A stretch of DNA of 46,856 nucleotides from Alphaproteobacteria bacterium (GCA_016937865.1 JAFGVS010000031.1:1-46856); one strand, 5' to 3'; numbered from the stretch's first letter, positions 2 through 43,438 are shown. Notes: generated from the sequence alone by a model not told the origin. Program-made: numbers and translations.

Positions 2-355
2 GAAAACGTTGAAATTATATATAATACAGAATTAAAAGAAGCCAAAGGCGATAAGTTTTTAACAGAAATTAAACTGATAAACAACGTAACAAAAGACGTT
101 TCTACAGTGGAAACCGACGGATTATTTGTCGCCATTGGCGTGATTCCAAATACAGAATTTATAAAAGATTTCATTGGGTTAAACCAATGGGGATTTGTGA
201 CAACAAAAGGTATCAGTACGGCCACAAATAAAAAAGGTATTTTTGTGGCGGGGGATATTACAGCCGATATTTTTCAACAAGCGGTGATTGCAGCCGGAAC
301 CGGGGCCTCCGCAGCGTTAGAAGTTGAACATTACCTAAATAGTCTGGAGGACTAA
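2..355 (+). CDS. trxB: Thioredoxin reductase, C-terminal part (5' end outside window)
   Basis: Frame is open from base 2; contains DGLFVAIGVIPNT and GIFVAGD...QQAVIAAGTGASAALEVEHYL, typical of the TrxB C-terminus. Confidence 0.93.
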   Translation, partial: ENVEIIYNTELKEAKGDKFLTEIKLINNVTKDVSTVETDGLFVAIGVIPNTEFIKDFIGLNQWGFVTTKGISTATNKKGIFVAGDITADIFQQAVIAAGTGASAALEVEHYLNSLED

Positions 356-362
356 AATCAAA

Positions 363-1598
363 ATGAAAGAAAAAGATATTTATCAAGAATCGCTTGAAAT
401 GCACGAATCAGGACAAGCCGGAAAATTCGAGATTACACTGACGAAAGCGTTAAATACACAGAAAGATTTGTCTTTGGCTTATTCACCAGGGGTGGCAGAA
501 CCAGTTCGAAAAATCGCGCAACATGCTTCAAACGCGTATCGCTACACAGGAAAAGGAAATTTTGTGGCGGTAATTAGTAATGGGACGGCTATTTTAGGAT
601 TAGGGGCGCTGGGGTCATTGGCTTCAAAGCCCGTCATGGAAGGAAAAGCAGTTCTTTTTAAAAAATTTGGGGGCGTTGACGCCATTGATTTAGAATTTGA
701 CACACTTGATGTGGATGAATTTGTAAGAACGGTTGAAATTATATCAGGGACTTTTGGCGGCATTAACTTGGAAGATATCAAGGCACCAGAATGCTTTGAA
801 ATTGAACGACGCTTGCAAGAAACCGTCGATATTCCAGTTTTCCATGACGACCAACATGGAACGGCAATTGTAACAACCGCAGGTTTGATCAGTGCGTTGG
901 ATTTAGTAAATAAAAAAATTGAAGACATTAAAATTGTCGTCAGTGGCGCAGGGGCCGCGGCGATTGCTTGTATCGAGCTCATGAAAACTATGGGGATCAA
1001 AGATGAAAATGTGCGGATGTGTGATTCAAAAGGCGTTTTGTACATTGGGCGACCAGAAAGTATGAATCAATATAAGATTAAACACGCGGTCGAAACCACA
1101 GATCGAACTTTGGCGGATGCAATTATTGGCGCAGACGTTTTCTTAGGATTATCACAACCAAATGTATTAACCGCAGAGATGTTAAAAGCCATGGCGCGTG
1201 ACCCAATTGTGTTTGCCTGTGCCAACCCAGATCCGGAGATTAAACCAGAACTCGCAAAAGCAACGCGTGATGATGTCATTATGGCAACCGGTCGATCCGA
1301 TTATCCAAACCAGGTGAACAATGTCTTGTGTTTCCCATATTTATTCCGAGGTGCATTGGATGTCCGTGCAACAAAAATCAATGCGGAAATGAAAGTTGCG
1401 GCGGTAAAGGCCTTGGCGGCTTTGGCAAAAGAACCAGTGCCAGAAGAGGTCAAAAAAGGCTATGGTAAAACCGAAATGTCCTATGGACGGGAATATATTT
1501 TACCAACCCCAATGGATCCACGTTTGAAAGAATTTGTCGGAAAGGCTGTGGCCAAAGCCGCAATCGAAAGCGGTGTCGCCCAGATCTGCAAAATGTAA
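363..1598 (+). CDS. NAD(P)-dependent malic enzyme (MaeB-type catalytic part, no PTA domain)
   Basis: LSLAYSPGVAEP, KPVMEGKAVLFK, FHDDQHGTAIV, GAGAAA, ATGRSDYPNQVNNVLCFP motifs. Confidence 0.93.
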   Translation: MKEKDIYQESLEMHESGQAGKFEITLTKALNTQKDLSLAYSPGVAEPVRKIAQHASNAYRYTGKGNFVAVISNGTAILGLGALGSLASKPVMEGKAVLFKKFGGVDAIDLEFDTLDVDEFVRTVEIISGTFGGINLEDIKAPECFEIERRLQETVDIPVFHDDQHGTAIVTTAGLISALDLVNKKIEDIKIVVSGAGAAAIACIELMKTMGIKDENVRMCDSKGVLYIGRPESMNQYKIKHAVETTDRTLADAIIGADVFLGLSQPNVLTAEMLKAMARDPIVFACANPDPEIKPELAKATRDDVIMATGRSDYPNQVNNVLCFPYLFRGALDVRATKINAEMKVAAVKALAALAKEPVPEEVKKGYGKTEMSYGREYILPTPMDPRLKEFVGKAVAKAAIESGVAQICKM

Positions 1599-9623: not shown

Positions 9624-9637
9624 AAAAATGACCTCTT

Positions 9638-9859
9638 TTATTTATTGTTCTTTACGTAAGGAAGCAATCCGATATAGCGCGCACGTTTAATGGCTTGCGC
9701 TAAGGCACGTTGGTTTGTTGGCGTAACGCCTGTAATACGTGAAGGAAGAATTTTCCCACGTACAGAAAGATATTTTTCCAAAAGATCAATATTTTTATAA
9801 TCGATCAATTTCCCATTTAAAGGGTCAGATTTTTTTCGAAATACAAGTGATTTAGGCAT
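9638..9859 (-). CDS. rpsR: 30S ribosomal protein S18
   Basis: [35 protein letters not shown]. Confidence 0.97.
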
Positions 9860-10202: not shown

Positions 10203-10416
10203 AACTTTCCTTTTGGTTGTCCGTGCTTTCACGGGGTATCTGGTATAGGTGTATCCGCACCAGAAAGGTTTCTTTACAACAAAAATGCTTTTAACAAACG
10301 AGGCCATCTTAAGACATAAAACATTTTTTTTCAAGGAAAAAGGAGAAAAAGCTTTTATTGGAAGGCAAATTATGATAAAATAAGCAAGGAATAGAGAAGA
10401 AAACTTGAGGAATGAG

Positions 10417-24402: not shown

Positions 24403-24764
24403 AAGATGCTCCTTTGCATTTTGCAGGGAGCGGGAGAGGGGAAAGGCAATTAGACCTCGTGCTGTCACGCTCCCTCCTTGTTTTTATAACCGAAAGATAG
24501 TCAAGAAACACCCTGAAAAAAAGTAAAGAGCGCCGTATTACAATATGTGGGTATATTTATATAGACAGGTGTACATAAGATGAAAATTATATAAGAAGAT
24601 AAATAACGTAACGAGCACGCCAAAAAAAACCATGCCAGATTCGTTAGGAAATGTAAAGAACTTTTTTAAAAAAACATAAACTTGACAAAATCTTAAATAT
24701 GATTGTATATAGGTCAATTTTTTTTGCTAGATTTTCAAAACAGGCTGCGGTAAAGTCGGTTTTT

Positions 24765-28918: not shown

Positions 28919-30799
28919 ATGAATGGTTTATTAAGTTTGATTGCAGTGCTTTCTGCGACAGTACTGAGTGTCGCAATTTTGCGTCGATTAGGTCTTGGGA
29001 CCGTTCTCGGGTTTTTAATTGCCGGGATTATCGTGGGGCCGATCGGGTTTGATTTGATCCAACACACCCATACGGTTGAAATGTTGGGAGAATTTGGGCT
29101 TCTATTCTTACTTTTTATTATCGGGCTGGATTTCCGGCTATCCAGATTAAAAGAAATGCGCCGTGCGCTTTGGGGATTGGGCAGTGCCGAGTTTTTTATT
29201 GTCGGCGGGATTTTCCTAAGTATTGGTCTAACCATCGGGCTAACGGTGGAACAAGCATTATTGGTGGGTTTTTCTTTGGCCTTATCTTCAACGGCGATGG
29301 ACCTCCAATTGTTAACAGAAAGAGAAGAGCTCGCAACATCATTTGGGCGTGCCACCTTAGGGACGCTTCTTTTCCAAGATTTGATGGCAATTCCATTGTT
29401 GGCGTTCTTGCCGCTCCTTGCGGATTCAGGGCATTCGGTATCGTTTGATGTCGGGCAAGCCTTTTTAGAGGCGATCATTTTGATTGGATTTGTTTTCATT
29501 TTTGCAAAACGCATTGCCCCCTTTATTTTAAAAACGATTGCGAAGATTAAAAGTCCAGAGGCTTTTACAGTGGCTTCTATCGTCTTGGTGCTTGTGATGT
29601 GTGCGGCAACCAGTGCGGCTGGACTGCCAATGTCTTTAGGCGCCTTTGCCGCAGGGATGATGTTAGCAGAAAGTAATTACCGTCATCAAATTCAAACAGA
29701 TATTATGCCGTTTAAAGCATTGTTGCTGGGTCTTTTCTTCGTCGTATTAGGAAGCACGTTAAACTTGAGGCTTTTGATTGCACATCCAAGCTACATTATT
29801 GCGGCAGTTAGTGGATTAATTGCTTTAAAATTAGTGCTAATATTTCTTATTTCAAAAGGCATTATGAATTTACGGACAAAAGAAAGCTTCAAAACAGCCT
29901 TACTCTTGGCACAAGGGGGTGAATTTGCATTGGTTGTATTCCAATTGGCCTTGGTTAAATTTAAGATATTACCACCAGAAATTGGACAAGGCTTAATGCT
30001 CGTGATTTTGGTTTCAATGACACTCACGCCGATCCTTTGCAAATTAGCAGAGCTATTAGAAAAGAATGGCCGGCTTTTTCCACACAAAATGGATTCTGTT
30101 CCAAATGGGGAATTGGCAGTTTCTGATCACGTTATTATTGGCGGATTTGGACGCGTCGGACAAACCATTGCGTACATGTTAGAAAAAGCAAAAATCCCGT
30201 ATACGGCAATTGATATGGAACCTGATCGCGTCGTTGAAGGACGAAACATGGGGTATCCAGTATATTATGGTGATGTGACGCGTTATGATGTTTTACGGAC
30301 GATTGGTGCCGATCGGGCCAATATCGCCGTCATTGCATTAGATAAAGTTTCTGTTGTAAAACAAACGGTTAATTCAATTGCGGAAAACTTCCCACACATT
30401 AAAATCTTTGCCCGTGCGCGAAACCATTTTGAAAGCGAAGCCTTGAAAAAACATGGCGTGACGGCAACGATGCCAGAAACAATTGAATCAAGCTTACAAT
30501 TAGGGCGTGTTGTTCTTGATGCGGTTGGTGTGGAAAAAGAACGTATTTTTGGATTAATTGGGGATTTACGTCTGGATGATTATGCGGAATTATATAAAAT
30601 TATTGAAGCTTCTCAAAGTCCACAAAAATTGGCGCTGACCCCAAAAGCCCGGAATAAAAAGATTCACGCGGCTTTGGCAAGAATGTTTAAAAAAGCGGAT
30701 GTGCCTGTAGAATTAGTGGAGAATAAAGATAAGAAACCACCTAAACCTAAAAAAATGATAAAAAAAGCAACGAAAAAAGTTGTAAAAAAGAAAAAGTAA
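28919..30799 (+). CDS. CPA2/Kef-family cation:proton antiporter with RCK (TrkA-N) domain
   Basis: LSSTA, LLFQD, LAQGGEFA, GGFGRVGQ, YYGD; Lys-rich tail. Confidence 0.92.
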   Translation: MNGLLSLIAVLSATVLSVAILRRLGLGTVLGFLIAGIIVGPIGFDLIQHTHTVEMLGEFGLLFLLFIIGLDFRLSRLKEMRRALWGLGSAEFFIVGGIFLSIGLTIGLTVEQALLVGFSLALSSTAMDLQLLTEREELATSFGRATLGTLLFQDLMAIPLLAFLPLLADSGHSVSFDVGQAFLEAIILIGFVFIFAKRIAPFILKTIAKIKSPEAFTVASIVLVLVMCAATSAAGLPMSLGAFAAGMMLAESNYRHQIQTDIMPFKALLLGLFFVVLGSTLNLRLLIAHPSYIIAAVSGLIALKLVLIFLISKGIMNLRTKESFKTALLLAQGGEFALVVFQLALVKFKILPPEIGQGLMLVILVSMTLTPILCKLAELLEKNGRLFPHKMDSVPNGELAVSDHVIIGGFGRVGQTIAYMLEKAKIPYTAIDMEPDRVVEGRNMGYPVYYGDVTRYDVLRTIGADRANIAVIALDKVSVVKQTVNSIAENFPHIKIFARARNHFESEALKKHGVTATMPETIESSLQLGRVVLDAVGVEKERIFGLIGDLRLDDYAELYKIIEASQSPQKLALTPKARNKKIHAALARMFKKADVPVELVENKDKKPPKPKKMIKKATKKVVKKKK

Positions 30800-30806
30800 A
30801 AAAATC

Positions 30807-30835
30807 TTGCGTTTCGGTGGAAACATTTATATAGT
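30807..30835 (+). promoter_or_regulatory. sigma70-type promoter of rpmG
   Basis: TTGCGT-N17-TATAGT. Confidence 0.6.
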
Positions 30836-30874
30836 CTGCCAGCAAGAATTTGAAAAAGTATAAAAAGGGGTGTT

Positions 30875-31048
30875 ATGGCCAAAAAAGATACAATTTTCGT
30901 TCGTATGATGAACAAAGCAACCGGCATGTATTATGCGATGAAGAAAAATCCGAAATCGGAAAATACTAAAGGTAAGATGACAATGCGTAAATATGATAAA
31001 AAATTACGTAAACATGTAACTTTTACAGAAACAAAAATGCCTAAATAA
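30875..31048 (+). CDS. rpmG: 50S ribosomal protein L33, Cys-free form (absent from ORF track)
   Basis: Translates as MAKKDTIFVRMMNKATGMYYAMKKNPKSENTKGKMTMRKYDKKLRKHVTFTETKMPK. Confidence 0.92.
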   Translation: MAKKDTIFVRMMNKATGMYYAMKKNPKSENTKGKMTMRKYDKKLRKHVTFTETKMPK

Positions 31049-31075
31049 GCATAATGGTTTAAGTTTAAAAAATTC

Positions 31076-31103
31076 AAAACAACCCTTCGGGGTTGTTTTT
31101 TTT
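31076..31103 (+). terminator. Intrinsic terminator after rpmG
   Basis: aaaacaaccc-ttcg-gggttgtttt plus T run. Confidence 0.88.
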
Positions 31104-31195
31104 ATGCACAAATGTCTGTGTCTAAAAGAAAAAAGACAAATTCAGTTTTAGGTGTTCAAATATAAGTGTAGGGTTAAAAACAAAAGGAGAATATT

Positions 31196-31753
31196 ATGTT
31201 TAACATAAAATTCAAAAGGTATGTTCATCAACTTAAAGAGCTGATGTATAAAAGACCAGTAGGAGCTCAAGAGGTGGCAGAGGCCGAGAACTTAATAGAA
31301 AAGGCCGTTTTATTATCCGAAACAGGTTTTTTTTCTAAAGGAAATAAACGGTTTCTAAAAGAGCAGATGACTAAAATACTGGATTGTGGTAGAGATCATT
31401 TAAAGGCAGGCGAATTTGCAAGTGATTATCGTGCCATAAAGAGTGAGCCGGCGCTAGAATGGTATCGCTCTGCAGATCTTAAAGAGAAACTATACGAAAA
31501 AATATCGCAAAAATGGGATTGGCTTTATGACGAAGAACATCAAAAAAATCTAAATAGAGTCATGCGATTTGAAACATTCACGAATGCCCTTTTTGTAAAA
31601 ACACAACACGGCGAAAATCCTTATCAAGAAGAGATAGATGAAGTCCGAGGTATAAAGCGCGTAGAAGATCCAAAAATCTTAAGAGTAGATTTTAAAAGAA
31701 GAAAAGAATCACCTATTTTAGAAGAAGCAATTCTTTTGAGGCAGCGTGGATAA
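31196..31753 (+). CDS. Hypothetical protein
   Basis: AAGGAG RBS, 185-aa charged ORF, own terminator; no motif recognised. Confidence 0.7.
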   Translation: MFNIKFKRYVHQLKELMYKRPVGAQEVAEAENLIEKAVLLSETGFFSKGNKRFLKEQMTKILDCGRDHLKAGEFASDYRAIKSEPALEWYRSADLKEKLYEKISQKWDWLYDEEHQKNLNRVMRFETFTNALFVKTQHGENPYQEEIDEVRGIKRVEDPKILRVDFKRRKESPILEEAILLRQRG

Positions 31754-31760
31754 GTCATAT

Positions 31761-31792
31761 AAAAAACACCTCTTAAGTGGGGTGTTTTTTTT
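31761..31792 (+). terminator. Intrinsic terminator
   Basis: aaaaaacacctc...ggggtgtttttt hairpin with T run. Confidence 0.8.
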
Positions 31793-31817
31793 ATTTTGAA
31801 AAAGATTCAATTTATAC

Positions 31818-31846
31818 TTGACTCTCGTGAAAAAATTCTTTATAAT
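31818..31846 (+). promoter_or_regulatory. Near-consensus sigma70 promoter upstream of the capsid cluster
   Basis: TTGACT (31818-23)-N17-TATAAT (31841-46). Confidence 0.75.
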
Positions 31847-32195
31847 AGAGTCTTGTAAAAGGGGCCGTTGTGCCTTTTTTTTATTTTTAAAACGGATAAC
31901 AGGTCATCTGCTCCACTTTAAAATCGAGCCTTTAAACGATGAACACGCTTTTATAGCGTGTTTTTTTCTCTTTAAAACAAGCCAAATGAAATTCAAATAA
32001 TTTAACAATAAAAACGTCAAGCAATAAAAAAAGTGAAATCAAAGTGGCTTTGCCACGGTCATGTTTAAAAGATATTTTTATTTCCAGTATCGCGTACCGC
32101 AGCGTACATATTGTACGTGAGGACACACAGATCACGCCGTAAAATAGATTTAAACAGAATTGGTTTCCAATAGGAACAGAAAGGAACTAATAAAA

Positions 32196-33017
32196 ATGTC
32201 TACATCTATAGACCAAGCTTTTATCAAGCAATTCGAAGTCGATGTCCATTTGGCTTATCAACAAAAAGGGACAAAACTACGTGCGACCGTGCGTTCTAAA
32301 ACAGATATCACGGGAATTTCCACGACTTTTCAAAAAGTCGGAAAAGGAATCGCATCAACAAAATCGCGACACGGTATGGTACCTGTAATGAACCTAGACC
32401 ACACACCTGTGGAATGCGCATTAGAAGATTTCTATGCCGGCGATTGGGTAGATGCATTAGACGAGCTTAAAACAAACGTTGATGAACGTTTTGTTGTGGC
32501 GTCTGCTGGTGCGTATGCTTTGGGACGTAAAACAGATGAGCTAATTGTAAACAAGTTGGGATCTGCAACATCTGCAATCGCGCACGCAACATCTGGTTTA
32601 ACCAAAGATAAAATCATGAATGCGGTGGAAATGCTAAACAGCAATGACGCCCCAGATGATGGTCAAAGATTCGGCATCATCGGTGTAAAACAATGGAGCG
32701 ATTTATTAAATATCCAAGAATTTTCCAGCGCAGATTATGTGGGGGAAAATTATCCATGGCTATCTGGTTCTGAAACACGGAAATGGATGGGCGTGATTTG
32801 GATTTTACATAATGGATTACCGGTAAACACAAACATTCGCGATTGTTTCTTGTATCACAAAAGTGCGATCGGACACGCCGTCGGCAGTGAAGTTCTAACA
32901 GACATTTCATGGCACGGCGAACGTGCTGCACACTTTATTTCAAACCGCATGAGCCAAGGGTCATGCCTGATTGAAGAAAATGGTGTTGTAAAGATCGAAT
33001 GCGATGAAGCTGCGTAA
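32196..33017 (+). CDS. Phage major capsid protein (podovirus type)
   Basis: MSTSIDQAFIKQF...KLRATVR...AGAYALGRKTDELI...RFGIIG; AAGGA RBS before ATG 32196. Confidence 0.88.
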   Translation: MSTSIDQAFIKQFEVDVHLAYQQKGTKLRATVRSKTDITGISTTFQKVGKGIASTKSRHGMVPVMNLDHTPVECALEDFYAGDWVDALDELKTNVDERFVVASAGAYALGRKTDELIVNKLGSATSAIAHATSGLTKDKIMNAVEMLNSNDAPDDGQRFGIIGVKQWSDLLNIQEFSSADYVGENYPWLSGSETRKWMGVIWILHNGLPVNTNIRDCFLYHKSAIGHAVGSEVLTDISWHGERAAHFISNRMSQGSCLIEENGVVKIECDEAA

Positions 33018-33040
33018 ACTGTTTGAGCAACTACTCCCAC

Positions 33041-33074
33041 AAATCCTCCTTGTCCTTGCACGGGGGATTTTTTT
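33041..33074 (+). terminator. Terminator after capsid gene
   Basis: aaatcctcc...gggggattt stem followed by T run. Confidence 0.7.
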
Positions 33075-33155
33075 ACGAAAGAAATAAGAAGTAAAAAAAC
33101 TCTATAGACGAAACGAGAGGATTACTTTCTCATAAAATAAAAAAGGAAAGATAAT

Positions 33156-33395
33156 ATGAAACAAGAAAATTTAAGTGTATTGGCCTACGCCAATGGCTTT
33201 ACATTATGGCATTATAAAGATACGGATACATTGCTAAATGTAACCGCATCTACATTTTTCGTGCCGGTGTATAACATTTTAAATGTTGGCGATATGATTA
33301 TGATTAATGCAGGCGCAGGGGCATCGGAAACAGCCGTTGCGTTTGTAAGTGCTCTCAGCAATTCAAGTGTGACACTCAGCACAATGACCCAATAA
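33156..33395 (+). CDS. Small capsid-adjacent protein (possible head decoration protein)
   Basis: RBS, LSVLAYANGFTLWHY...GDMIMIN, position after capsid gene. Confidence 0.65.
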   Translation: MKQENLSVLAYANGFTLWHYKDTDTLLNVTASTFFVPVYNILNVGDMIMINAGAGASETAVAFVSALSNSSVTLSTMTQ

Positions 33396-33404
33396 AAGGG
33401 AACC

Positions 33405-33429
33405 AAATCCCCGCTTTTGCGGGGATTTT
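33405..33429 (+). terminator. Intrinsic terminator
   Basis: aaatccccgc-tttt-gcggggattt. Confidence 0.8.
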
Positions 33430-33456
33430 ATATATAGAACTATAAAAGGATTTTAA

Positions 33457-34026
33457 ATGGCTTTTTCATCACTCGATTTGTGCTCTCAAGCGCTTCTTAA
33501 AATAGGGGCATCTCCAATACATTCTTTCGAAGCCAAAACCGCAGAATCTAAAATCGCGAGCGCACTCTATGAATCCATAAAGCAAAATATGCTGTCTTGC
33601 TTTCCATGGACATTTGCAATTAAGACAGAGCGATTGGCAAAGTTGGCAACAGATCCAAAAGCGGATTTTGCCTATGCTTTCCAATTGCCAAACGATTGCT
33701 TGCGTGTGCTATCTGCGGGCGTAAACAAAAAATCAACAGGTCTCGATTATCAAATAAAGGCCACGCAACTCTTAACGACAGCAGACGATATTTATATCAC
33801 GTATCTAACGGATATTCCTGAAACAGATTTTCCGCCCTTCTTTCGACAAGCATTGGTTTCACGGTTGGCCAGTGAGTTTTGTTTGCCTCTCACGGAAAAT
33901 ACAACGCTGGCGACATTCTTATTAAAACAAGCGGAAGTCGATGAAAAAAAATCCCGCGTTATTGATTCACAACAAGAAACCCCACGTGCAATTTTAAACT
34001 TCCCCATGATTGATATAAGGGGATAA
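33457..34026 (+). CDS. Tail tubular protein A / adaptor (T7 gp11-like)
   Basis: LCSQALLKIGASPI, PWTFA, AFQLPNDCLRV, FPPFFRQALVSRLA. Confidence 0.8.
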   Translation: MAFSSLDLCSQALLKIGASPIHSFEAKTAESKIASALYESIKQNMLSCFPWTFAIKTERLAKLATDPKADFAYAFQLPNDCLRVLSAGVNKKSTGLDYQIKATQLLTTADDIYITYLTDIPETDFPPFFRQALVSRLASEFCLPLTENTTLATFLLKQAEVDEKKSRVIDSQQETPRAILNFPMIDIRG

Positions 34027-34049
34027 AAAGACCGCAGAAAGAAAGCAAT

Positions 34050-34072
34050 GCTCTCATTTGGGGGGCTTTTTT
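34050..34072 (+). terminator. Possible terminator
   Basis: gctctc-attt-gggggc (with G-U pairs) plus T7. Confidence 0.55.
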
Positions 34073-34098
34073 AATAGCAAAAATCAAAGGAGAAAAAT

Positions 34099-34554
34099 AT
34101 GGGTGCATCAAACGTTGGTACGTTTGTCGACAGTACGATTGGTATGGTCGAAGGCTACCAAAATCGAAAACAGGAAAAAAAAGAAATCCAAGCACGATTA
34201 GACGCCGAACGTCAAAAAATCGCGCTGGAAAAAAAGAAAGAATATGTCCAAAAATCACAATATGACACCGAGCAGAGAAATCTATTAAAACGGGCTCTGG
34301 CCACACAACGGTCTCGGTATGGGGCTGGGGGAACAGCAGGGAAATCTTTTTCGGCCAAATCGGTACTCAAACGTTTGGATGGGGATGCAAAACGAAATCT
34401 AGAAAATTATAAAGAACTCAGTGATCTTCGATTAGAAAAATTAAACAACAATTTATCCGATGCAGAAACAAATGCGCTACTGGATAAAAAGAGATCAAAA
34501 TTAAATCAGCAGGTTAAATTGGCCAAATCTGGGCGAAAATTATTAGGGAATTAA
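34099..34554 (+). CDS. Probable internal virion protein (T7 gp14-like)
   Basis: Coiled-coil character with QRSRYGAGG...SAKSVL motif; context. Confidence 0.55.
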   Translation: MGASNVGTFVDSTIGMVEGYQNRKQEKKEIQARLDAERQKIALEKKKEYVQKSQYDTEQRNLLKRALATQRSRYGAGGTAGKSFSAKSVLKRLDGDAKRNLENYKELSDLRLEKLNNNLSDAETNALLDKKRSKLNQQVKLAKSGRKLLGN

Positions 34555-34565
34555 AAGGGGGAAAA

Positions 34566-35267
34566 ATGCTAAAAGTCATATACACAACAGATGGAATTCA
34601 AAAAGAGTTTCCATTTCCACATCGTATTTTCAAAGATGAAAATTTAACCGTTTTTTTAGAGGAAATACAAATGATGACGGGTTTTGTAATCGAAAACGAA
34701 GACAGCCTAAGTGGCGCTAACGTGGTCTTTAATGTCGCCCCGGAATCAGGAAAAGAATTAACCCTGATGCGTCAAATGCAGATAAAGCGAACTTCCGATT
34801 TTCAACCACAAAACCCACTTGATCTAACCATTTTAAATGTCGAATTAGATTATCAAATTGAAACGCTAAAAGATATTTCCGCACAATTGAGCAAGACGGT
34901 TTCACAAGGATTAATCAGTAATGAGTTGCTGAATTTAACGCTACCAGTGCCCGAAGCAGGAAAAGCATTGTTGTGGTCGCCAACGGCAGATTCCTTGGTG
35001 AATTCCGAAATTAATATCAGTCAAACCATTTTAGATTTAGAAACCGACATCGCAGAAATGGAAAGGCTAAATAATGATATTCGCGCATATCTGGAAATAT
35101 CTGGAGATGCCGGAATTTTAGGAATTGTGAATAATTTAATTGGTTTAATGGCTTCATATCATGTCGATGCTTTTATTACTTTCGGTCATATTTCAGACAG
35201 TCCAGATGAAAATCCCGCCTATGGTCTGATTACAGAAAGTGCAGGAGAAACGATTGATTACACTTAA
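34566..35267 (+). CDS. Short tail-fibre protein (T7 gp17 N-terminal adaptor-like domain)
   Basis: YTTDGIQKEFPFP...VVFNVAP...TLMR...RTSDF...LNVELD; LPVPEAGKALLW. Confidence 0.75.
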   Translation: MLKVIYTTDGIQKEFPFPHRIFKDENLTVFLEEIQMMTGFVIENEDSLSGANVVFNVAPESGKELTLMRQMQIKRTSDFQPQNPLDLTILNVELDYQIETLKDISAQLSKTVSQGLISNELLNLTLPVPEAGKALLWSPTADSLVNSEINISQTILDLETDIAEMERLNNDIRAYLEISGDAGILGIVNNLIGLMASYHVDAFITFGHISDSPDENPAYGLITESAGETIDYT

Positions 35268-35865
35268 TCATCGTAAAAAAGGTTTTTTGACATTTATAAA
35301 ACTATGGAATGATCTTTCAAGGTTCAAAACGCCACAACATCACAATCAAATCGGTGTTTGGTTAGAACAAATTTATCATGGATTGGATCGAAAAGGGCTA
35401 TTGCTAGCGTTTCGCAATAGTGGAAAATCAACCGTTGTAGCTCTATTTTGTGCATGGATTTTATATCAAAATCCAAACGATAGAATTCTGGTTGTTTCGG
35501 CAGACGCGCGTCTGGCTACGAAAATATCACGGCATATTCGACGCATCATAGAACATCATCCATTGACGGAAAAACTTGTGCCAAAGAAAAAAGAAGAGTG
35601 GGCAGGCTGTGCTTTTTCGATTGAAAGGTCTCAAAAACAACGCGACCCATCTGTAACGGCCTTTGGGATTACCAGCGGGATTACAGGCGCACGTGCAGAT
35701 GTGATTATTTGTGATGATGTCGAAATTCCAAAAAACTGTAACACGGAAGAAAAGCGGGAAGATCTCCGCGAGAGATTAGTCGAATTAGAATTTATTTTGT
35801 CACCCAATGGCATGCAAATTTTTATCGGTACGCCACACACATATGAAACTATTTATCAATCGTAA
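35254..35865 (+). CDS. Large terminase, ATPase domain only
   Basis: Walker A FRNSGKST, ITGARADVIICDDVE (Walker B), IGTP coupling motif, then TAA; AGGAG RBS before TTG 35254. Confidence 0.85.
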   Translation: MITLNHRKKGFLTFIKLWNDLSRFKTPQHHNQIGVWLEQIYHGLDRKGLLLAFRNSGKSTVVALFCAWILYQNPNDRILVVSADARLATKISRHIRRIIEHHPLTEKLVPKKKEEWAGCAFSIERSQKQRDPSVTAFGITSGITGARADVIICDDVEIPKNCNTEEKREDLRERLVELEFILSPNGMQIFIGTPHTYETIYQS

Positions 35866-35878
35866 AAAGGAAAATAGA

Positions 35879-37315
35879 ATGAATAAAGAAGAATTGTTAA
35901 AAAAATTTGAAAAAGCGAAAGCAACACGACGTCCTTGGGAAAGTATCTGGGAAGAATGTTATCATTATGGATTGCCGCATGGGTCAGCCTTTCACGAAAA
36001 TCAAAAGATAAAATCAGATTTATTTGATTCAACGGCCAGCGATGGGGTAGAACAACTGGCAACAAATTTATTGTCTGAAATGACGCCACCATGGGGGGAC
36101 TGGTTTTCAATCCAATCAAATAAAGAAGAAATGAAAGAGGTGCTAGAGAAAAGCGAAAAAGTTCTAAAAAAACATTTAGAGCGATCAAACTTTTCGGTCG
36201 AAATGCATCAATGTTATTTAGACCTTGTCGCCATTGGAAGCGCTTGTCTATTAGTAGAAGAAGCCCCAATAGGCCTGTCTTCTGCTTTTCGATTTAAGGC
36301 GATCCCGATGCGGAATATGTTTGTTTTGGAAAATGCAACAGGGCGACCAGATACTGTTTTTAATACGGTTATATTCTCGAGCGAAGAATTTTTAAAACGC
36401 TGGCCGAATAGCATATTGGATGAGCAATCAAGACGGGATTTATCCAAAAACAAAGAAAATAAAATCGCGGTACTCGAATGTATTTATCCTATTTTTGAAA
36501 AAGGACAAATCAAAGGATATCGTTATTTGGGCTGTCCGATATCTGGTGTCAAATTATCTAAGGACACAGAATTTATTTTCGATAAAACATTGGCAACAAA
36601 TCCGTTTATGGTCTTTCGATGGATGAAAACAGCCGGGGAAACATACGGTCGATCACCGGTGATGAAAGCCTTGCCAGATATTAAAACAGCCAATATGGTG
36701 GTGGAGCTTATTTTAAAAAATGCCAACCTCGCGATCAGCGGCGTTTGGATGGCGGATGACGACGGGGTGTTAAATACAGAAAATCTGTCGTTAAAACCAG
36801 GCACAATTATCCCCAAAGCGGTCGGATCACAAGGGTTAACACCACTGCAAACGGCCACAGATTTTAATGTATCCGACCTGGTGTTAAATGATTTGCGTGC
36901 GTCGATCCGCAGAAATTTGATGATGGATAAATTATCACAGTTCCAAACAAAAACACCCATGACCGCAACCGAAGTTATTGAAAGATCCGGGGAAACACAA
37001 CGCGTGTTGGGGGCGATTTATGGACGTCTTCACGGGGAGTTATTAACTCCTCTTTTGATGCGTTTGGCGGATATTTTGCAACGCCGGGGAGAAATTCCAT
37101 TGCTTGATTTAAAAGGGGTTGTTAGTCATCCAGTGTATCGTTCCGGTTTAAATAAATTACGTAAAAAAGAAGAGCTACAAAATATAATGGAAGGTTTGAA
37201 TATTTTAAAAATGTTAAATATTGGTCCAGAAAATATTTTGAATACCGAAAAGACTTTGGCGTTTCTAGTGGATAAATTAGATTTGCCATCGTCTATTTTA
37301 AAGATAGAGGAATAA
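35879..37315 (+). CDS. Portal / head-to-tail connector (T7 gp8-like)
   Basis: WESIWEECY, FDSTA, RWMKTAGETYGRSP, ALPDIKTAN, MTATEV; AAAGG RBS before ATG 35879. Confidence 0.92.
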   Translation: MNKEELLKKFEKAKATRRPWESIWEECYHYGLPHGSAFHENQKIKSDLFDSTASDGVEQLATNLLSEMTPPWGDWFSIQSNKEEMKEVLEKSEKVLKKHLERSNFSVEMHQCYLDLVAIGSACLLVEEAPIGLSSAFRFKAIPMRNMFVLENATGRPDTVFNTVIFSSEEFLKRWPNSILDEQSRRDLSKNKENKIAVLECIYPIFEKGQIKGYRYLGCPISGVKLSKDTEFIFDKTLATNPFMVFRWMKTAGETYGRSPVMKALPDIKTANMVVELILKNANLAISGVWMADDDGVLNTENLSLKPGTIIPKAVGSQGLTPLQTATDFNVSDLVLNDLRASIRRNLMMDKLSQFQTKTPMTATEVIERSGETQRVLGAIYGRLHGELLTPLLMRLADILQRRGEIPLLDLKGVVSHPVYRSGLNKLRKKEELQNIMEGLNILKMLNIGPENILNTEKTLAFLVDKLDLPSSILKIEE

Positions 37316-37316
37316 G

Positions 37317-37520
37317 ATGTTTGATCGAAATAAGGAGGCGCACGATTTCGTGCGCTGTTTCAATACGCCTGCCGGGCGAAAAGTTTTGTCTTATTTGCGT
37401 GGTATGACGGTTGAAAAAGCGATGGGGCCGGAAACACCGGCTCCGACATTGTATTATCGGGAAGGTCAAAAAGCCTTGGTCAAACATATTGAACATATGA
37501 TTGAAAAAGGACAGAAGTGA
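37317..37520 (+). CDS. Bbp19-like small protein
   Basis: FNTPAGRKVLSYL...YREGQKALVKHI; directly after portal. Confidence 0.7.
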   Translation: MFDRNKEAHDFVRCFNTPAGRKVLSYLRGMTVEKAMGPETPAPTLYYREGQKALVKHIEHMIEKGQK

Positions 37521-37535
37521 AAAAGAAGAAATAAA

Positions 37536-37823
37536 ATGACAGAAATACCTTTATCCTGGTGGATCCAGGTTGTTGAAATCCCCGCATTAGCGGGGCTTTT
37601 TTTATGGACAAAATCTATCCGTTCACAAGCCGAAACACAACACGAACATCTACGCGAAACCTTGGAAGATCGTATTGAAAAGACGCGGGAGGTTTTGGCA
37701 ACGCATAAAGTCGAAGTGGCACAAAAATATGCCTCTATTTCCTATATTCGGGATGTCGAAAAAAGATTAACGGATCATTTGATTCGCATAGAAGAGAAGT
37801 TAGAAGGAAGGAAAAGAAAATGA
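37536..37823 (+). CDS. Membrane-anchored coiled-coil phage protein
   Basis: N-terminal hydrophobic WWIQVVEIPALAGLFLW, then coiled coil ending RIEEKLE. Confidence 0.65.
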   Translation: MTEIPLSWWIQVVEIPALAGLFLWTKSIRSQAETQHEHLRETLEDRIEKTREVLATHKVEVAQKYASISYIRDVEKRLTDHLIRIEEKLEGRKRK

Positions 37824-38224
37824 TTCAAGATATTCAAAACGATAGAGCCAGTGCACAATATTTTACGGCAATCACACTGTATCATGAAGGATATGGCTAT
37901 AATTTAAAAGAGTTAGAAGCCATCGGATCTGTGATTAAAAATAGATTTGACTTTTATAGAAATATCAAACAAAAAAAGACGTGGGAGCAAGTGTGTTCCG
38001 ATGCCACAATTTTTAAATTTTGGAAGACAGATGATTGTATTGAAAGTCCAATTATCACAGATGCTTTTTTTGCCATGTGCTCCCGTGTAGCGGGGCGTGC
38101 TATTTCTGGAGTTCTAACAGATATAACCAATGGCGCTTTGCGTTATCACCATTGCACGGATATGCCGCATTGGGCACGTGGAAAAACAGGGCTGGAAATC
38201 GGTGATTTTATTTTCTATGATTAG
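37820..38224 (+). CDS. Cell-wall hydrolase (SleB/Hydrolase_2-like)
   Basis: AITLYHE...AIGSVIKNR...DITNGALRYH...PHWA...IGDFIFY. Confidence 0.8.
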   Translation: MIQDIQNDRASAQYFTAITLYHEGYGYNLKELEAIGSVIKNRFDFYRNIKQKKTWEQVCSDATIFKFWKTDDCIESPIITDAFFAMCSRVAGRAISGVLTDITNGALRYHHCTDMPHWARGKTGLEIGDFIFYD

Positions 38225-38259
38225 GCGATAATGTATTAAAATTAAAAAAGGAGTTATAA

Positions 38260-38787
38260 ATGAAGATTCTAAAAACAATTTTGGACGCTCTGAAAAAAGG
38301 ACTGTCTTCGCTAAAAGCCCTTGTTTCCAAAAACACGGCTCCTCCCAAAAAAACATCAACACCACTCAAACCCATTTTACAAATTCGCGGGCAAGATGCT
38401 TCTGGATCTGGAGCGTTTGGAGCCCCCAGAAAACGAAAAGACGGCTCTCGCTATAAACATCAAGGGATTGATATTAAGTCCAATCCCGGACAAAAAATTC
38501 GGGCGTTGAGCGATGGTATTTTTTTACGAAAAGTAGACCCATATGGGGATGGTAAATTTTCCGGTATGGTAATTAAAGATGCAGCGGGAAATGAACAAAA
38601 AATCTTTTATATTAACACGATCAAAAAAGTCGGAGATGTTCTTGAAAAAGGGCAAATTATGGCGATCGCGCAAGATGTTGCGGATGGGCGGGACATGACA
38701 AACCATTATCATTTTGAGGTTCGAGATAAAAACAAAAAACTCTTGGATCCGAATGATTATCTAAAAAAAGACTATAAATTAGTCTAA
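38260..38787 (+). CDS. M23-family metallopeptidase
   Basis: HQGID (HxxxD) and HYHFEVR (HxH) zinc motifs, LDP near C-terminus. Confidence 0.87.
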   Translation: MKILKTILDALKKGLSSLKALVSKNTAPPKKTSTPLKPILQIRGQDASGSGAFGAPRKRKDGSRYKHQGIDIKSNPGQKIRALSDGIFLRKVDPYGDGKFSGMVIKDAAGNEQKIFYINTIKKVGDVLEKGQIMAIAQDVADGRDMTNHYHFEVRDKNKKLLDPNDYLKKDYKLV

Positions 38788-38804
38788 ATCCTAAACGGAA
38801 GTAC

Positions 38805-38829
38805 AACGGCGCGAAAGCGCCGTTTTTTT
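38805..38829 (+). terminator. Intrinsic terminator
   Basis: aacggcgc-gaaa-gcgccgtt plus T run. Confidence 0.85.
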
Positions 38830-38851
38830 GATTCAAAAAAAGGAGAAGTGA

Positions 38852-40699
38852 ATGCCAAAACAAACCTATACGCAAACCTCATTTTCACACGGAATGGTAT
38901 CGCTGCCCATTTTTGTGCGCAGTGATTTAGAGGCCCAAAGCAATGGCCTAATGACATTGGAAAATGCCTATGTAACACCAACCGGAGGCATAAAAAGACG
39001 GGAAGGGACACGTTTTATTGATACGCTTTTGGGGAAATCTCGCCTGATTAATTTCGGCGCGGCAAAACAAGAAGTTTTGGTTGTTTTAAGTAATCTAAAA
39101 ATAGCCATTTATGAAGAAGATGTTAAGGTTTTTGAGGCGACTTCGCCATGGCGCGAAAACGAAATTCAACACGTGCAATGGACGCAAAATGTAGACACAT
39201 TATTTTTAGTACATCCTGATTTTGCACCGAAGAAGCTCAGGAAGGCAAAAAATGTTTGGCAGTTTCAAAATTGGATATTTCAAACAAATATAGACGGATT
39301 AACCTTAGATCCTTTTTATAAATTTGATGATACGGAAGGCGTGTTGCTAACGCCACTTGGAACCAGTGGCACATTCATTGTAAACGTGTCAACACAGTAC
39401 TTTTCAGAAGAACATATTGGTCTAAAAATACGTCTGAACGACGGTGAGATGATTATAACGCAAGTTATTGATGACAGCAGCATTCAAGTGCAAAGTAGCA
39501 AGGATTTAATCTCCTTGGATCAAAGCAGCGATTGGATTGAATCGTGCTTTTCAGATCAGCGGGGCTGGCCGATTTCGATTTCTTTTCATCAAAATCGTCT
39601 GGTTGTTGGAGGTTCTAAATCCTTGCCACATAAAGTATGGATGTCAAAAACAGGGGATTTTTTCAACTTTGATTTTGGGGAAGGTTTGGATGATGAAGCC
39701 ATTACATTCAGTCTGCTCTCAGATCAGCGCGAACATATTTCAAGTGTGTTTTCAGGAACACATTTGCAAGTTTTAACCGCCCAATCGGAATGGATGGTCG
39801 GCGGTGAACCCTTAACACCCGCAACAATAAACGTAAAGAAACAAACGACCATCGGATCTCATTTGGACCGATATTTGCCACCTCAAAACGTAGAAGGGGC
39901 AACCATCTTTATTGCAAAAAACGGAAAAGAAATCCGTGAATTTATTTATGGTGAGGTTGAAAAAACGTATCAGTCCTATGACTTAGCATTGCTGGCAGGA
40001 CATCTCATGGAAACACCTGTGGATCAAACCTATAATGACGAAAACCGTAAATTATATGTTGTTATGGAAACCGGAAACATGGCGGTCTTGGTATTGAATA
40101 AAAGTGTCGGGGTTGCCGGCTGGAGTGTGTATAAAACACAAGGTAATTTTCAATCAATTGCGATTGTAAATGGGCAAACATATATCAGTGTCGCGCGGGC
40201 AACTGGGGTGTTTTTGGAAAAATTTGATGAAAGAGTGCACTTAGATTCAAGTATTTCCACCAAAGACGCAAATGTGGTTATCTTGCCACACTTAAATAAT
40301 CAAAACAGTGGATGGACAGGGGATGATTTTCGCTCTGGTGAAGATGTGGTTCAAGACAATAATTTAGGCTTGCCAGAAATCATGGAAACAACGGATGCAG
40401 GCTTAAATTATACCCACGTTATCGAACCGCTGCCAATTTTAAATCTAAATGGGGAAGTGGCAAAAAAATGGCGCCTAATTGAGTTGCGTTTAAGTCTGAA
40501 AAAATCTCATTTGTTAGAGCTTAGCATGCAAGATGAAACACACACAGTTCAGTTGGATGAGGACGTGTTTACAGGCAGCTATCGTTTGAAAGCGTTGGGA
40601 TATATTGAAGATCTAACGACATCTTTGTGGAAGATTGAAAGTAACAAACCGTATGCCTTTGAATTCTTGGGATATACCGCATTTATCAAAACCATATAA
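38852..40699 (+). CDS. Tail tubular protein B / nozzle (T7 gp12-like)
   Basis: QTSFSHG...GGIKRREGT, TQNVDTLFLVHP, GWPISISFHQNRL, WMSKTGDFFNF. Confidence 0.83.
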   Translation: MPKQTYTQTSFSHGMVSLPIFVRSDLEAQSNGLMTLENAYVTPTGGIKRREGTRFIDTLLGKSRLINFGAAKQEVLVVLSNLKIAIYEEDVKVFEATSPWRENEIQHVQWTQNVDTLFLVHPDFAPKKLRKAKNVWQFQNWIFQTNIDGLTLDPFYKFDDTEGVLLTPLGTSGTFIVNVSTQYFSEEHIGLKIRLNDGEMIITQVIDDSSIQVQSSKDLISLDQSSDWIESCFSDQRGWPISISFHQNRLVVGGSKSLPHKVWMSKTGDFFNFDFGEGLDDEAITFSLLSDQREHISSVFSGTHLQVLTAQSEWMVGGEPLTPATINVKKQTTIGSHLDRYLPPQNVEGATIFIAKNGKEIREFIYGEVEKTYQSYDLALLAGHLMETPVDQTYNDENRKLYVVMETGNMAVLVLNKSVGVAGWSVYKTQGNFQSIAIVNGQTYISVARATGVFLEKFDERVHLDSSISTKDANVVILPHLNNQNSGWTGDDFRSGEDVVQDNNLGLPEIMETTDAGLNYTHVIEPLPILNLNGEVAKKWRLIELRLSLKKSHLLELSMQDETHTVQLDEDVFTGSYRLKALGYIEDLTTSLWKIESNKPYAFEFLGYTAFIKTI

Positions 40700-40718
40700 C
40701 AAAAAAAAGGAGAAAAAA

Positions 40719-40910
40719 ATGGAAAAAATTATTAACGGGGGCCTTTTAAAAGGCAAAAAAACATACATCACAACCACACTTGGATTGCTGTCTGCGTTAG
40801 GCGCCTATCTGATTGGAGAAATGGATCTCGCGGGCTTTTTACAAACCGTATTTCCGCTCGTTGGGATACTATTTTTACGCAAAGGAATCGCAGATCAATC
40901 ACAAAAATAA
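40719..40910 (+). CDS. Small two-TM holin-like protein
   Basis: AAGGAG RBS before ATG 40719; LKGKKTYI...TM...TM...FLRKGI. Confidence 0.65.
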   Translation: MEKIINGGLLKGKKTYITTTLGLLSALGAYLIGEMDLAGFLQTVFPLVGILFLRKGIADQSQK

Positions 40911-40922
40911 AAGGATACATAA

Positions 40923-41616
40923 ATGACTGAAAGACCAGAGTTCTTACCTGAAAAGTTTTGGGATATGGAAAAAAAATGCGCCTCGTTTAGAAGCGATGAG
41001 TAAATCATACAAAGAATTGGAAAAGCGTTTTTCTCAAACACATCAGTTTTCAAAAGAAAATTTAAATGATGAAGAAAAAAAACAAATCTTAAAAATGTTG
41101 GGACATCCCGAAGCGCCCTCTGCGTATGAGGATGTCTTGGCTGATAAATTCCAAATCGATTCAGAGGCGAATGAAAAGTTGCATGCGGTCGGGTTAACAC
41201 CGGAACAAGTCCAAGTTGTGTATGAATTGGCGAATGAACGTCTGATGCCACAATTAGAAGAGGCCGAAAAAAACACAGAAAGTATGCAACAAAACTTATT
41301 GTTAAAAGATTATTTTGGATCAGAAACGGCGGTTGAATCGGTGGCGAAACAAGTGCTCGCTTATGCCGAAAATAATTTTTCACCAGATGTCGCCGAAGAA
41401 CTCTGTCAAAGCGCCAAAGGGGTGATTGGGATCTATGAAATGATGCAATCGAATAAAGAGCCCGGAATTTTGGCCGGAAAAGGCGAAGATATGGAAAACC
41501 TCTCTGACCAGTCACTCCGTAAAATGATGCAAGACCCGAAATATTGGCGTGAACAAGATCCTGAATTTGTTAAAAAAGTCAAAATTGGTTTTGAAAAGCT
41601 ATACGGCGAAAAATAA
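40923..41616 (+). CDS. Capsid assembly/scaffolding protein, split by a +1 frameshift at A8 (40969-40976)
   Basis: RBS plus MTERPEFLPEKFWDMEK in one frame; continues NAPRLEAMSKSYKELEKRF...GLTPEQ...DPKYW in the +1 frame. Confidence 0.78.
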
Positions 41617-41619
41617 ATA

Positions 41620-41648
41620 AAAAAAACGCCTCCACGGAGGCGTTTTTC
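41620..41648. terminator. Bidirectional terminator closing the cluster
   Basis: aaaaacgcctcc-ac-ggaggcgttttt. Confidence 0.85.
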
Positions 41649-41663
41649 TTTTGAAATCAAATC

Positions 41664-42098
41664 TTATCTATACCGCATCGCACGAAATTCTTCACGCGTC
41701 ACTTTGCCATCACTATTTAAATCCAAAGAATCGAAATGATCCTGTGCCATTTCTTCAGCACATACCATAAATTCTTCCTTAGACACGATACCGTCGTTGT
41801 TTGTATCTTTTTTTGAAAAACGTTTTATTTTTTTTTCTACATTGCAGCCGAGCGTTTGGGTCTCACACTTTAAAAACTCAAATTTTGAAAGTTGTTCATC
41901 TTTGTTTTTATCTTTATTTTCAAAGCTTTTCGCTTTTTTTCCCAAGTCACACTCAGAGTTCTTTCCCAGACGAAACTCTTCCAAAGTAACGACATCATCT
42001 CTATTTTTGTCATATTTGTGAAAGAATCCCCCTTTGGCATCCGCTGTTCCGGCAGATAGAATAAAGGCCATTCCAAATAAGATAGATAATAAACGCAT
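41664..42098 (-). CDS. Secreted EF-hand protein
   Basis: GGAG RBS, signal peptide ending ADA, four loops DKNRDDVVTLEEF, DKNKDEQLSKFEF, DTNNDGIVSKEEF, DLNSDGKVTREEF. Confidence 0.88.
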   Translation of the reverse strand: MRLLSILFGMAFILSAGTADAKGGFFHKYDKNRDDVVTLEEFRLGKNSECDLGKKAKSFENKDKNKDEQLSKFEFLKCETQTLGCNVEKKIKRFSKKDTNNDGIVSKEEFMVCAEEMAQDHFDSLDLNSDGKVTREEFRAMRYR

Positions 42099-42174
42099 TT
42101 TAACGTCTCCGTTGTCTTGAGTGAATGCCACAAGTATAGCGAATTTTAGACAAAGGGGCAAACAAATAAAAAGC

Positions 42175-42203
42175 TTGAAATCCTTGAGCGTTTTATTTAT
42201 GCT
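42175..42203 (+). promoter_or_regulatory. sigma70-type promoter of rpmF-plsX-fabH
   Basis: TTGAAA-N17-TATGCT. Confidence 0.55.
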
Positions 42204-42235
42204 ACGCGGGCAATAAATTAAATAGGAGTCTAACA

Positions 42236-42400
42236 ATGGCAGTTCCAAAAAAGAGAACATCTGCATCAAAACGTGATATGCGTCGCTCGCATCATGCGCT
42301 AAAGCCAGAAGCAATGAGCACATGTAAAGCATGTGGTGAAGCAATGTTACCACATCATGTTTGCCCAGCGTGTGGCGAACGTCCAAAGGCGAAAAAATAA
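42236..42400 (+). CDS. rpmF: 50S ribosomal protein L32 (absent from ORF track)
   Basis: Translates as [54 protein letters not shown]; AGGAG RBS; upstream of plsX. Confidence 0.96.
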
Positions 42401-42415
42401 CGAAAAGGACAGATA

Positions 42416-43438
42416 TTGTCTACCATTCTCGCAGTCGATTGCATGGGAGGGGATAAAGCACCCAAAGCGGTGTTTGACGGCCTCAGTTTAGTTTGTCGTG
42501 AGCGAGGAGATGTTATTTTTCATCTGTTTGGAAAAGAACGTGTTTTACAAAAACATCTAAAGCGCCACCCGTATCTCGCGGGGCGCTCTCTTATTTTTCA
42601 TAGCCCAGGGATCATCAAAGGAACGGATAAAGCCCGTGATGCGATTCGAAATGGTCAAAAATCCAGTCTCTACATGGCAATTGATCATGTGAAACGTGGC
42701 GAAGCCCATGCGATTCTGTCTGCCGGTAATACAGGTGCTTTTATGGGAATGGCAAAGCTTGGATTTCGAACGATATCCTCTATTATGCGTCCGGCCATTG
42801 TCAGTATTCTGCCAACACAAAATGGGCGAACCGTGATGTTGGATTTAGGCGCAAATTCTGAATGTAACGAGGATCATTTATTTCAATTTGGGGTTATGGG
42901 GGCTTTATACGCTCAATTAATGCTGGACAAAAAACGTCCAACGGTTGGCTTGTTAAATATTGGGGAAGAACACACCAAAGGAAATGATGTGTTGCGCAAT
43001 ACATATCAAAAAATGACAACACTTAAAAACGCACCGTTCAAATTTCATGGATTCGTCGAAGGAAATGATATTTTGCTTGGCACAACGGATGTTGTTGTGA
43101 CAGATGGCTTTACGGGTAATGTCGCGTTGAAAACCGCAGAAGGAACGGCAAAGTTCCTAGGTGATTTGATCAAAAGAGTCTTTAAAGATTCATTTTGGGG
43201 TAAAGTGGCCTATTTCCTTGTAAAAGGCGGATTAAAAATTCTCAAGAGTCGAATGGATCCACGTGAATATAGTGGGGCTGTTTTTATCGGATTAAATGGG
43301 ATTGCGGTAAAAACGCACGGGTCTTCGGATAAAGTTGCATTTGCGCGTGGAGCAGAATATGCTATAAGTATTGTTGAAAAAGATCTTAACAAAAAAATTA
43401 AGAAACAAATTGAAAAAATAAATAAAGGAAAAATATGA
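42416..43438 (+). CDS. plsX: Phosphate acyltransferase
   Basis: AVDCMGGD, SAGNTGA, LDLGAN, LLNIGEE, DGFTGNVALK, KTHGS. Confidence 0.96.
   Translation: MSTILAVDCMGGDKAPKAVFDGLSLVCRERGDVIFHLFGKERVLQKHLKRHPYLAGRSLIFHSPGIIKGTDKARDAIRNGQKSSLYMAIDHVKRGEAHAILSAGNTGAFMGMAKLGFRTISSIMRPAIVSILPTQNGRTVMLDLGANSECNEDHLFQFGVMGALYAQLMLDKKRPTVGLLNIGEEHTKGNDVLRNTYQKMTTLKNAPFKFHGFVEGNDILLGTTDVVVTDGFTGNVALKTAEGTAKFLGDLIKRVFKDSFWGKVAYFLVKGGLKILKSRMDPREYSGAVFIGLNGIAVKTHGSSDKVAFARGAEYAISIVEKDLNKKIKKQIEKINKGKI

Follow-up and report, generated by a model that had tools for sequence, protein, structure and literature searches.

The large terminase is described as one protein with two domains. The packaging ATPase of phi29, gp16, has a complete ATPase domain and, at its C-terminus, a vestigial domain resembling a nuclease, and it acts with pRNA on protein-primed DNA. 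The terminases of known gene transfer agents (GTAs) are, to our knowledge, single polypeptides. A report on the FpGTA of Faecalibacterium calls it the first GTA-like element of podovirus-like morphology (2026, PMC12946183), and a survey of GTA TerL proteins excluded partial TerLs by design (PMC7947584).

The locus considered here lies in a window of 46,856 nucleotides (the whole stretch of DNA that was analysed), which is the complete contig C64 of the bin G000 (Alphaproteobacteria bacterium, GCA_016937865.1), an 852-kb assembly in 67 contigs with completeness rated at 99.93% by markers. The runs containing the stretch are labelled as freshwater and sediment metagenome. At 35254..35865 on the plus strand the window encodes the N-terminal piece of a T7-type large terminase (TerL-N), which in all likelihood is one half of a terminase gene that is split throughout an order of small-genome Alphaproteobacteria, with the other half (TerL-C) missing from the G000 assembly. 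Literature searches brought up no account of this element or of a T7-type terminase split in two.

The terminase reading frame and its phage-like neighbourhood

Reading of the sequence places the start of TerL-N at GTG 35239 or TTG 35254 and its stop at TAA 35863-35865, with the stored gene call of 203 aa corresponding to the TTG start and the GTG start giving 208 aa. The last 14 nt of the fibre-like gene upstream are shared with TerL-N. TerL-N matched the profile NF033889 with 255.6 bits (cut-off 150; E 9e-76), covered positions 269-458 of the 760 in phrog_38 and matched residues 12-211 of the 586 in the PhiV-1 terminase (8dgc_E). The N-terminal motifs of a T7-type large terminase are present on the plus strand as Walker A (G62-K63-S64, 35422..35430, invariant in alignment A2), Walker B (ADVIICDDVE, residues 153-162, 35695..35724, with D154, D159, D160 and E162 invariant in A2) and a strand ending in GTP (IGTP, residues 196-199, 35824..35835, with G197, T198 and P199 invariant), motif names that no tool assigned. 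The IGTP motif closes the last strand present, which spans residues 187-197 in the AF2 model of TerL-N (pLDDT 87.5), the best fold match of this model being 8dgc_E (TMq 0.80, rmsd 2.5 over 196 columns). Sequence, profiles and AF2 fold together indicate that the reading frame is a real N-terminal part of a T7-type TerL.

Nine codons separate P199 from the TAA stop, which is followed by a 13-nt spacer (35866-35878) with AAGGA ahead of the portal ATG at 35879, stop and spacer (35863..35878, +) forming a tight, RBS-bearing junction at a site where relatives carry a spacer, TerL-C or other genes. A C-terminal RNase H-like nuclease is absent from the same protein, with only positions 2-189 of 500 in NF033889 being covered, and no C-terminal remnant lies downstream of TerL-N, as the genome match to NF033889 reaches profile position 223 only through four stops. 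An earlier note on this DNA had described intact Walker A, Walker B and IGTP motifs, a portal RBS and ATG within 13 nt and the lack of both a nuclease domain and a C-terminal remnant, and in all of this it was right; it had also placed the TAA stop eight codons after IGTP, where the stop is indeed present but the distance from P199 is nine codons.

TerL-N sits in a cluster of phage-like genes of roughly 10 kb, all on the plus strand. Upstream, the major capsid protein (32196..33017; PF19821, E 9e-76), whose ORF opens at TTG 32160 with an ATG at 32196, is followed by a conserved 79-aa element protein (33156..33395; phrog_18004; conserved in relatives), tail tubular protein A (33457..34026; PF17212), a gp14-like internal virion protein (34099..34554), syntenic in relatives and matched weakly with a score below the cut-off (PF24072, E 0.0027), and a tail fibre N-terminal-like protein (34566..35267; phrog_1640, phrog_2710) that precedes TerL-N in relatives as well. 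Downstream are found the 478-aa portal or head-tail connector (35879..37315; phrog_332), with a full-length match to PF12236 from residue 4 (E 1e-100), a Bbp19-like protein (37317..37520; PF25181), a conserved 95-aa element protein (37536..37823; phrog_29007; conserved in relatives), a cell-wall hydrolase (37820..38224; PF07486), an M23 peptidase (38260..38787; PF01551), tail tubular protein B or nozzle (38852..40699; phrog_376, E 7e-100, with PF25675 below the cut-off) and a T7-type capsid assembly (scaffold) protein (40996..41616; PF05396, E 7e-08). The flanks are housekeeping genes, with a KefC-like gene at 28919-30799 on one side and PlsX and FabH from 42416 on the other, and a scan of 16 ORFs within the cluster or adjoining it (31196-42386) gave no match to a replication or integration family. 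The capsid protein has an 86% identical copy in G001, a member of the same genus, with a dN of 0.09 and saturated dS between G000 and G001. The cluster derives in all likelihood from a T7-like podovirus and is chromosomal and inherited across the order, being most likely, to judge from its sequence, a domesticated particle-making element of the GTA kind. The keeping of 10 kb of phage genes in genomes of about 1 Mb argues for a function.

Several other features of the window were recorded. The M23 peptidase gene was without a tblastn match when the loci of 11 relatives were compared, and the nozzle gene is shifted behind it, the G000 cluster being rearranged relative to all relatives seen. Directly adjoining the element on the minus strand, 41664-42386 encodes a 240-aa protein whose C-terminal part has EF-hand calcium-binding motifs. 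In 30700-42500 there are 33 terminator-like hairpins against a shuffle mean of 11.3 (sd 2.7), an approximately three-fold excess, and the best promoter-like site in this interval (TTGACT-17-TATAAT, 31818-31846) is located upstream of the capsid gene. Further away, a 2705-aa ORF (15352-23469, +) has no Pfam match at E<=0.001, and two ORFs near it, of 702 aa (10405-12513) and of 311 aa (23533-24468, minus strand), have no Pfam or NCBIfam match.

A terminase gene in two pieces across the order

By profile, TerL-N was detected in 302 of the 328 genomes of the order, which are 0.5-1.3 Mb in size, including 213 of the 224 high-quality ones and 29 of the 30 genera. In a sample of 40 relatives from five other families of the order, 33 have a TerL-N ORF of about 200 aa ending at the same residue, with the conserved break following GTPHTxxTIY, and the G000 ORF ends there too. 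The protein matches TerL-N gave at E<=1e-10 comprise 847 clusters, most of the 120 matches listed being 195-215 aa long, and the closer TerL-N proteins in the public collection are 81, 72, 71, 70 and 66% identical. Scans of genome contigs and of metagenomes returned six loci at 53-61% identity and four at 54-58%, respectively, the titles of the related genome contigs naming uncultured Alphaproteobacteria, some from gut or rumen. Apart from G000, its own family comprises only G001 and G002, both lacking TerL-N, and the capsid gene of G001 lies at a contig end.

The remainder of the enzyme is encoded separately. In the locus L023 a 298-aa ORF (TerL-C) after the portal gene corresponds to phrog_38 positions 458-715, starting exactly where TerL-N ends. 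TerL-C was found in 35 of the 40 sampled relatives, including all 33 with TerL-N, the other two (G024 and G026) lacking TerL-N presumably through fragmentation, and in 45 of the 48 relatives at least 97% complete, the remaining three of which have neither a TerL-N match nor a capsid gene. TerL-C contains the rest of the ATPase domain (the next strand and two helices) and an RNase H-like nuclease, with invariant acidic residues D104, E171, D248, D249 and D252 in the motifs WDP, ExNG and DDGxD, which we take to be the nuclease active site; the TerL-C profile had no match at E<=0.01 among PDB sequences. NG86 dN/dS was 0.03-0.14 for TerL-N (10 finite values of the 12 closest pairs) and 0.08-0.19 for TerL-C (11 finite of 12), indicating that both halves are under purifying selection in the relatives.

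The position of TerL-C varies. In families f2, f4 and f6 it follows TerL-N at 0.2-0.6 kb; in f3 and f5 it is 3-16 kb from TerL-N and adjoins the portal gene. The gene has been relocated repeatedly among relatives. In the f3 genome G020 (L023:6595-10005) TerL-N is separated from the portal/TerL-C pair by a tRNA gene (7665-7737) and a gene for a 560-aa FtsZ (8248-9930), so that host core genes are interleaved with the element. Five genomes of family f5 (G158, G296, G324, G086 and G295), one of them a single-contig genome, have no TerL-N match and also lack the capsid gene (5/5), and no TerL-C match was found in the three of them that were searched. The element is dispensable and tends to be lost whole.

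The border between the domains was placed with L025, an unsplit 469-aa TerL of a rumen alphaproteobacterial MAG, folded with alignment A5 (pLDDT 89). Crystal constructs limited to an ATPase domain align with residues 1..251-258 in this model, with the T4 gp17 ATPase (2o0j) at residues 1..252 (Z 19.8, rmsd 2.5) and the P74-26 ATPase (4znk) at 2..258 (Z 19.1), and nuclease-only constructs align to residues 251-256..450, with G20c (5m1f) at 254..450 (Z 15.9). The break maps close to residue 200, within the loop that joins the IGTP strand (175-184) to the following strand (206-210). On this model TerL-N lacks strand 206-210, helices 227-246 and the whole nuclease (L025 numbering), stopping about 50 residues short of the end of the ATPase domain. 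With the break near residue 200 and the ATPase domain extending to 251-258, TerL-N represents an incomplete ATPase domain and not a cleanly excised one, contrary to the initial description of a terminase "cut cleanly to the ATPase domain". Having no nuclease and an incomplete ATPase fold, TerL-N alone should not package DNA unaided. In the relatives the enzyme is encoded by two genes, with the break in the loop after the IGTP strand, with TerL-N bringing Walker A, Walker B and IGTP and TerL-C bringing the next strand, two helices and the nuclease, and the two pieces presumably reassemble into one terminase.

More distant relatives are unsplit. L025 and 76 of the best 80 IMG/VR loci (out of 372 relatives) read through the break point in a single frame, with two of the other four loci being split and two stopping at a contig end. 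The fused TerL of the IMG/VR loci is about 455-520 aa where the locus includes its end. These elements, called as proviruses of about 6-57 kb in IMG/VR, belong to other Alphaproteobacteria; they are 48-58% identical in the TerL-N part and share the local order fibre, TerL, 95-aa protein and hydrolase, with TerL being one open frame at the break point, unlike the two genes of the order. The comparison indicates that the break is seamless and derived. In a quick tree built from the TerL-N parts, one change is enough to set the 28 split rows against the 74 fused ones, but this falls on an unsupported branch; 44 of the 99 inner branches are open, and the tree neither shows nor rejects that the break arose once. 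As a separate observation, fused-TerL elements are common in IMG/VR (L076-L154), such that the element family reaches well beyond this order.

A number of explanations for the break itself were rejected. An intron or RNA element at the break was discarded, as gathering-score Rfam matches in the relatives' loci were tRNAs only, in four loci, and nothing relevant appeared at E<=1 in the four loci with adjacent halves or in the window cluster. Read-through or a different genetic code was discarded likewise, the 198-nt spacer of G005 containing all three kinds of stop and the TAA of G000 being followed by the portal gene in a different frame. A promoter belonging to TerL-C was dismissed as a general rule, the 28 other upstream regions reaching only 8-10 of 12 promoter positions with both 10s at or inside the gene start; the TerL-C upstream region of G008 gives a 10/12 promoter-like match. 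Individual spacers do carry such sites. In G011 (L004:1278-1491, minus strand) the spacer before TerL-C has TTGACA/TATAAT (12/12) with a spacing of 16-17 nt, followed by an inverted repeat and a T run directly ahead of TerL-C, and the G005 spacer (L063:10223-10420) has a similar TTGACA-17-TATAAC. A small RNA in the G011 spacer was rejected, the part folded having an unremarkable z-score of -0.99.

Absence of TerL-C from the G000 assembly

Searches of the G000 contigs for TerL-C with PF17289, NF033889, PF22530, the L023 TerL-C protein and profile A3 gave no match, and a 30-ORF TerL-C profile run with filters off against the six-frame translation of G000 (segments of at least 25 aa) reached no better than E = 1. 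No other family of terminases or of terminase-type nucleases was found in G000. This absence applies to the 67-contig assembly and is not proof of absence from the organism. G000 is the sole one of 49 genomes at least 97% complete that has TerL-N and lacks TerL-C. The neighbourhood in which TerL-C usually resides is assembled in G000, the contig extending 35 kb upstream and 11 kb downstream of the locus, and TerL-C being 0.2-16 kb from TerL-N or adjoining the portal gene in the loci compared. All other conserved element genes of four relatives have an intact counterpart on the G000 contig.

TerL-N of G000 departs from the alignment at two of 34 otherwise invariant positions and at four of 63 that are at least 90% conserved (G68A, M96I, N147G and V163I), none of them inside the three motifs, the corresponding counts for other lone lineages being 2-6 of 34-37 invariant and 4-13 of 63-67 conserved positions. 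Expressed as a ratio to that of the capsid, the divergence of TerL-N is 1.29 in pairs with G000 (n=10) against 1.38 in other inter-family pairs (n=39), with ratios of 0.71 against 0.74 to the nozzle and 0.75 against 0.75 to tube A in the same sets. These comparisons indicate that TerL-N of G000 is not decaying and is under no relaxed constraint.

The earlier note had named findings by which its reading could be judged. A truncation shared by relatives under purifying selection is indeed seen, in 302 of the 328 genomes and with the low dN/dS of TerL-N. Relaxed selection of the G000 copy is contradicted by its conserved positions and divergence ratios. A full-length TerL in relatives was found in part, the relatives in the order carrying both pieces and the distant ones a fused gene. 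The suggestion that a nuclease might be encoded elsewhere holds for the relatives, which carry a separate TerL-C, but not for G000, where no such gene was found.

The reading to which we lean, if only somewhat, is that TerL-C has been deleted from G000, probably recently, leaving TerL-N abutting the portal gene. Deletion is the most likely account given that the usual neighbourhood of TerL-C is contiguous and empty, and as nothing else has decayed such a deletion would be recent, a long-dead packaging system being unlikely. The element of G000 would then be either freshly crippled for packaging or making DNA-free particles. Against deletion, the unrelaxed constraint on TerL-N fits a TerL-C that was simply not assembled equally well. 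The principal rival, credible although clearly the less probable, is accordingly that TerL-C is present in the organism outside the bin, within a gap of the assembly or on some short contig left unbinned, after moving away from the cluster, and that the enzyme is a normal two-piece one. In keeping with this, TerL-N and the remaining genes of the element are unbroken and under the same degree of constraint as where TerL-C is present, the two halves go together in all other examined genomes with TerL-N, the gene has moved repeatedly in relatives, two further MAGs (G024 and G026) are without one half, and the assembly is in 67 contigs with a depth of about 6 at the TerL-N locus. The marker completeness speaks against it, as does the contiguity of the usual neighbourhood, in which not even a fragment of at least 25 aa was detected. 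A chimeric junction between TerL-N and the portal gene, with the true sequence running on into TerL-C, is very improbable. A 7105-nt Logan contig of X1 (probably the source run), made by a second assembler though probably from the same reads, spans the junction and covers 34500-37700 with one difference, and in X2, a second sample of the same study, contigs at 34688-35881 (no differences) and 35867-36038 reproduce the stop, spacer and ATG and continue from 35867. Depth is low and neither X2 contig extends across the junction by 31 letters to both sides, but TerL-N stops at the residue where it also stops in relatives, and TerL-C is absent from all 67 contigs.

The idea, put forward in the earlier note, of a motor working without cutting in the manner of phi29 fares poorly. 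In this scheme TerL-N would act by itself or together with an unrelated partner, filling capsids with pre-cut DNA or other cargo, or would help in assembly at the portal. The intact motifs, the unrelaxed constraint despite the lack of TerL-C in the assembly, the tight RBS-bearing junction to the portal gene, the retention of all structural and lysis genes and the confident model of TerL-N on its own are all in its favour. Part of the ATPase domain itself is missing, however, and TerL-C accompanies TerL-N wherever else it was looked for (33/33 in the sample; 45/45 at >=97% complete), such that a single genome among 49 does not point to a state kept by selection. Neither a further terminase or terminase-type nuclease family nor a pRNA-like RNA was found, with no Rfam family at gathering score in 30700-42500 and no pRNA among 11 sub-threshold matches, and the genomes without both halves are also without the capsid gene (5/5), pointing to loss of the whole element as the usual pattern. 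A nuclease-free motor is thus distinctly unlikely. Only a little less doubtful is the broader proposal of an undescribed T7-like GTA of small-genome Alphaproteobacteria with a two-polypeptide terminase, of which G000 would hold a variant that lost TerL-C and keeps TerL-N and the particle genes under selection, its particles being loaded differently or free of DNA. Taken as a whole, an order-wide two-piece terminase with true loss of TerL-C in G000 is the statement that we would, on balance, put forward.

Significance and relation to described systems

More than 300 species conserve an enzyme that is interrupted within its ATPase domain, with both pieces under purifying selection. Should the two pieces reassemble, the break would offer a natural handle on the communication between ATPase core, lid region and nuclease, and would show how a host could gate packaging by the separate expression of one piece. 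In Alphaproteobacteria of gut, rumen and water whose genomes measure about 1 Mb, the element may represent a new family of podovirus-type GTAs. For annotation, calls of a "terminase large subunit" of about 200 aa in these bacteria denote halves and not fragments. The special state of G000 matters only if the absence of TerL-C holds at read level.

Compared with phi29 gp16, TerL-N shares the character of a packaging ATPase without an active nuclease, and differs in that its ATPase domain is incomplete, its sequence family is of the T7 type and no pRNA match accompanies it. The likeness to GTAs (RcGTA, BaGTA and FpGTA) lies in a chromosomal, phage-derived cluster of structural and lysis genes, with no replication or integration match in 16 ORFs, that is flanked by housekeeping genes, kept order-wide and often dispersed into several loci. 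It differs in being T7-like and not HK97-siphovirus-like, the element being known here from its genes. The T7-type large terminase (gp19; PhiV-1, 8DGC; NF033889) is in phages one polypeptide of about 586 aa, against the approximately 200 aa of TerL-N ending inside the ATPase domain. It is with this enzyme that TerL-N shares the sequence and fold of the N-terminal ATPase core, and the neighbours around TerL-N are T7-like as well, comprising portal, scaffold, capsid, tube A and B and a gp14-like protein.
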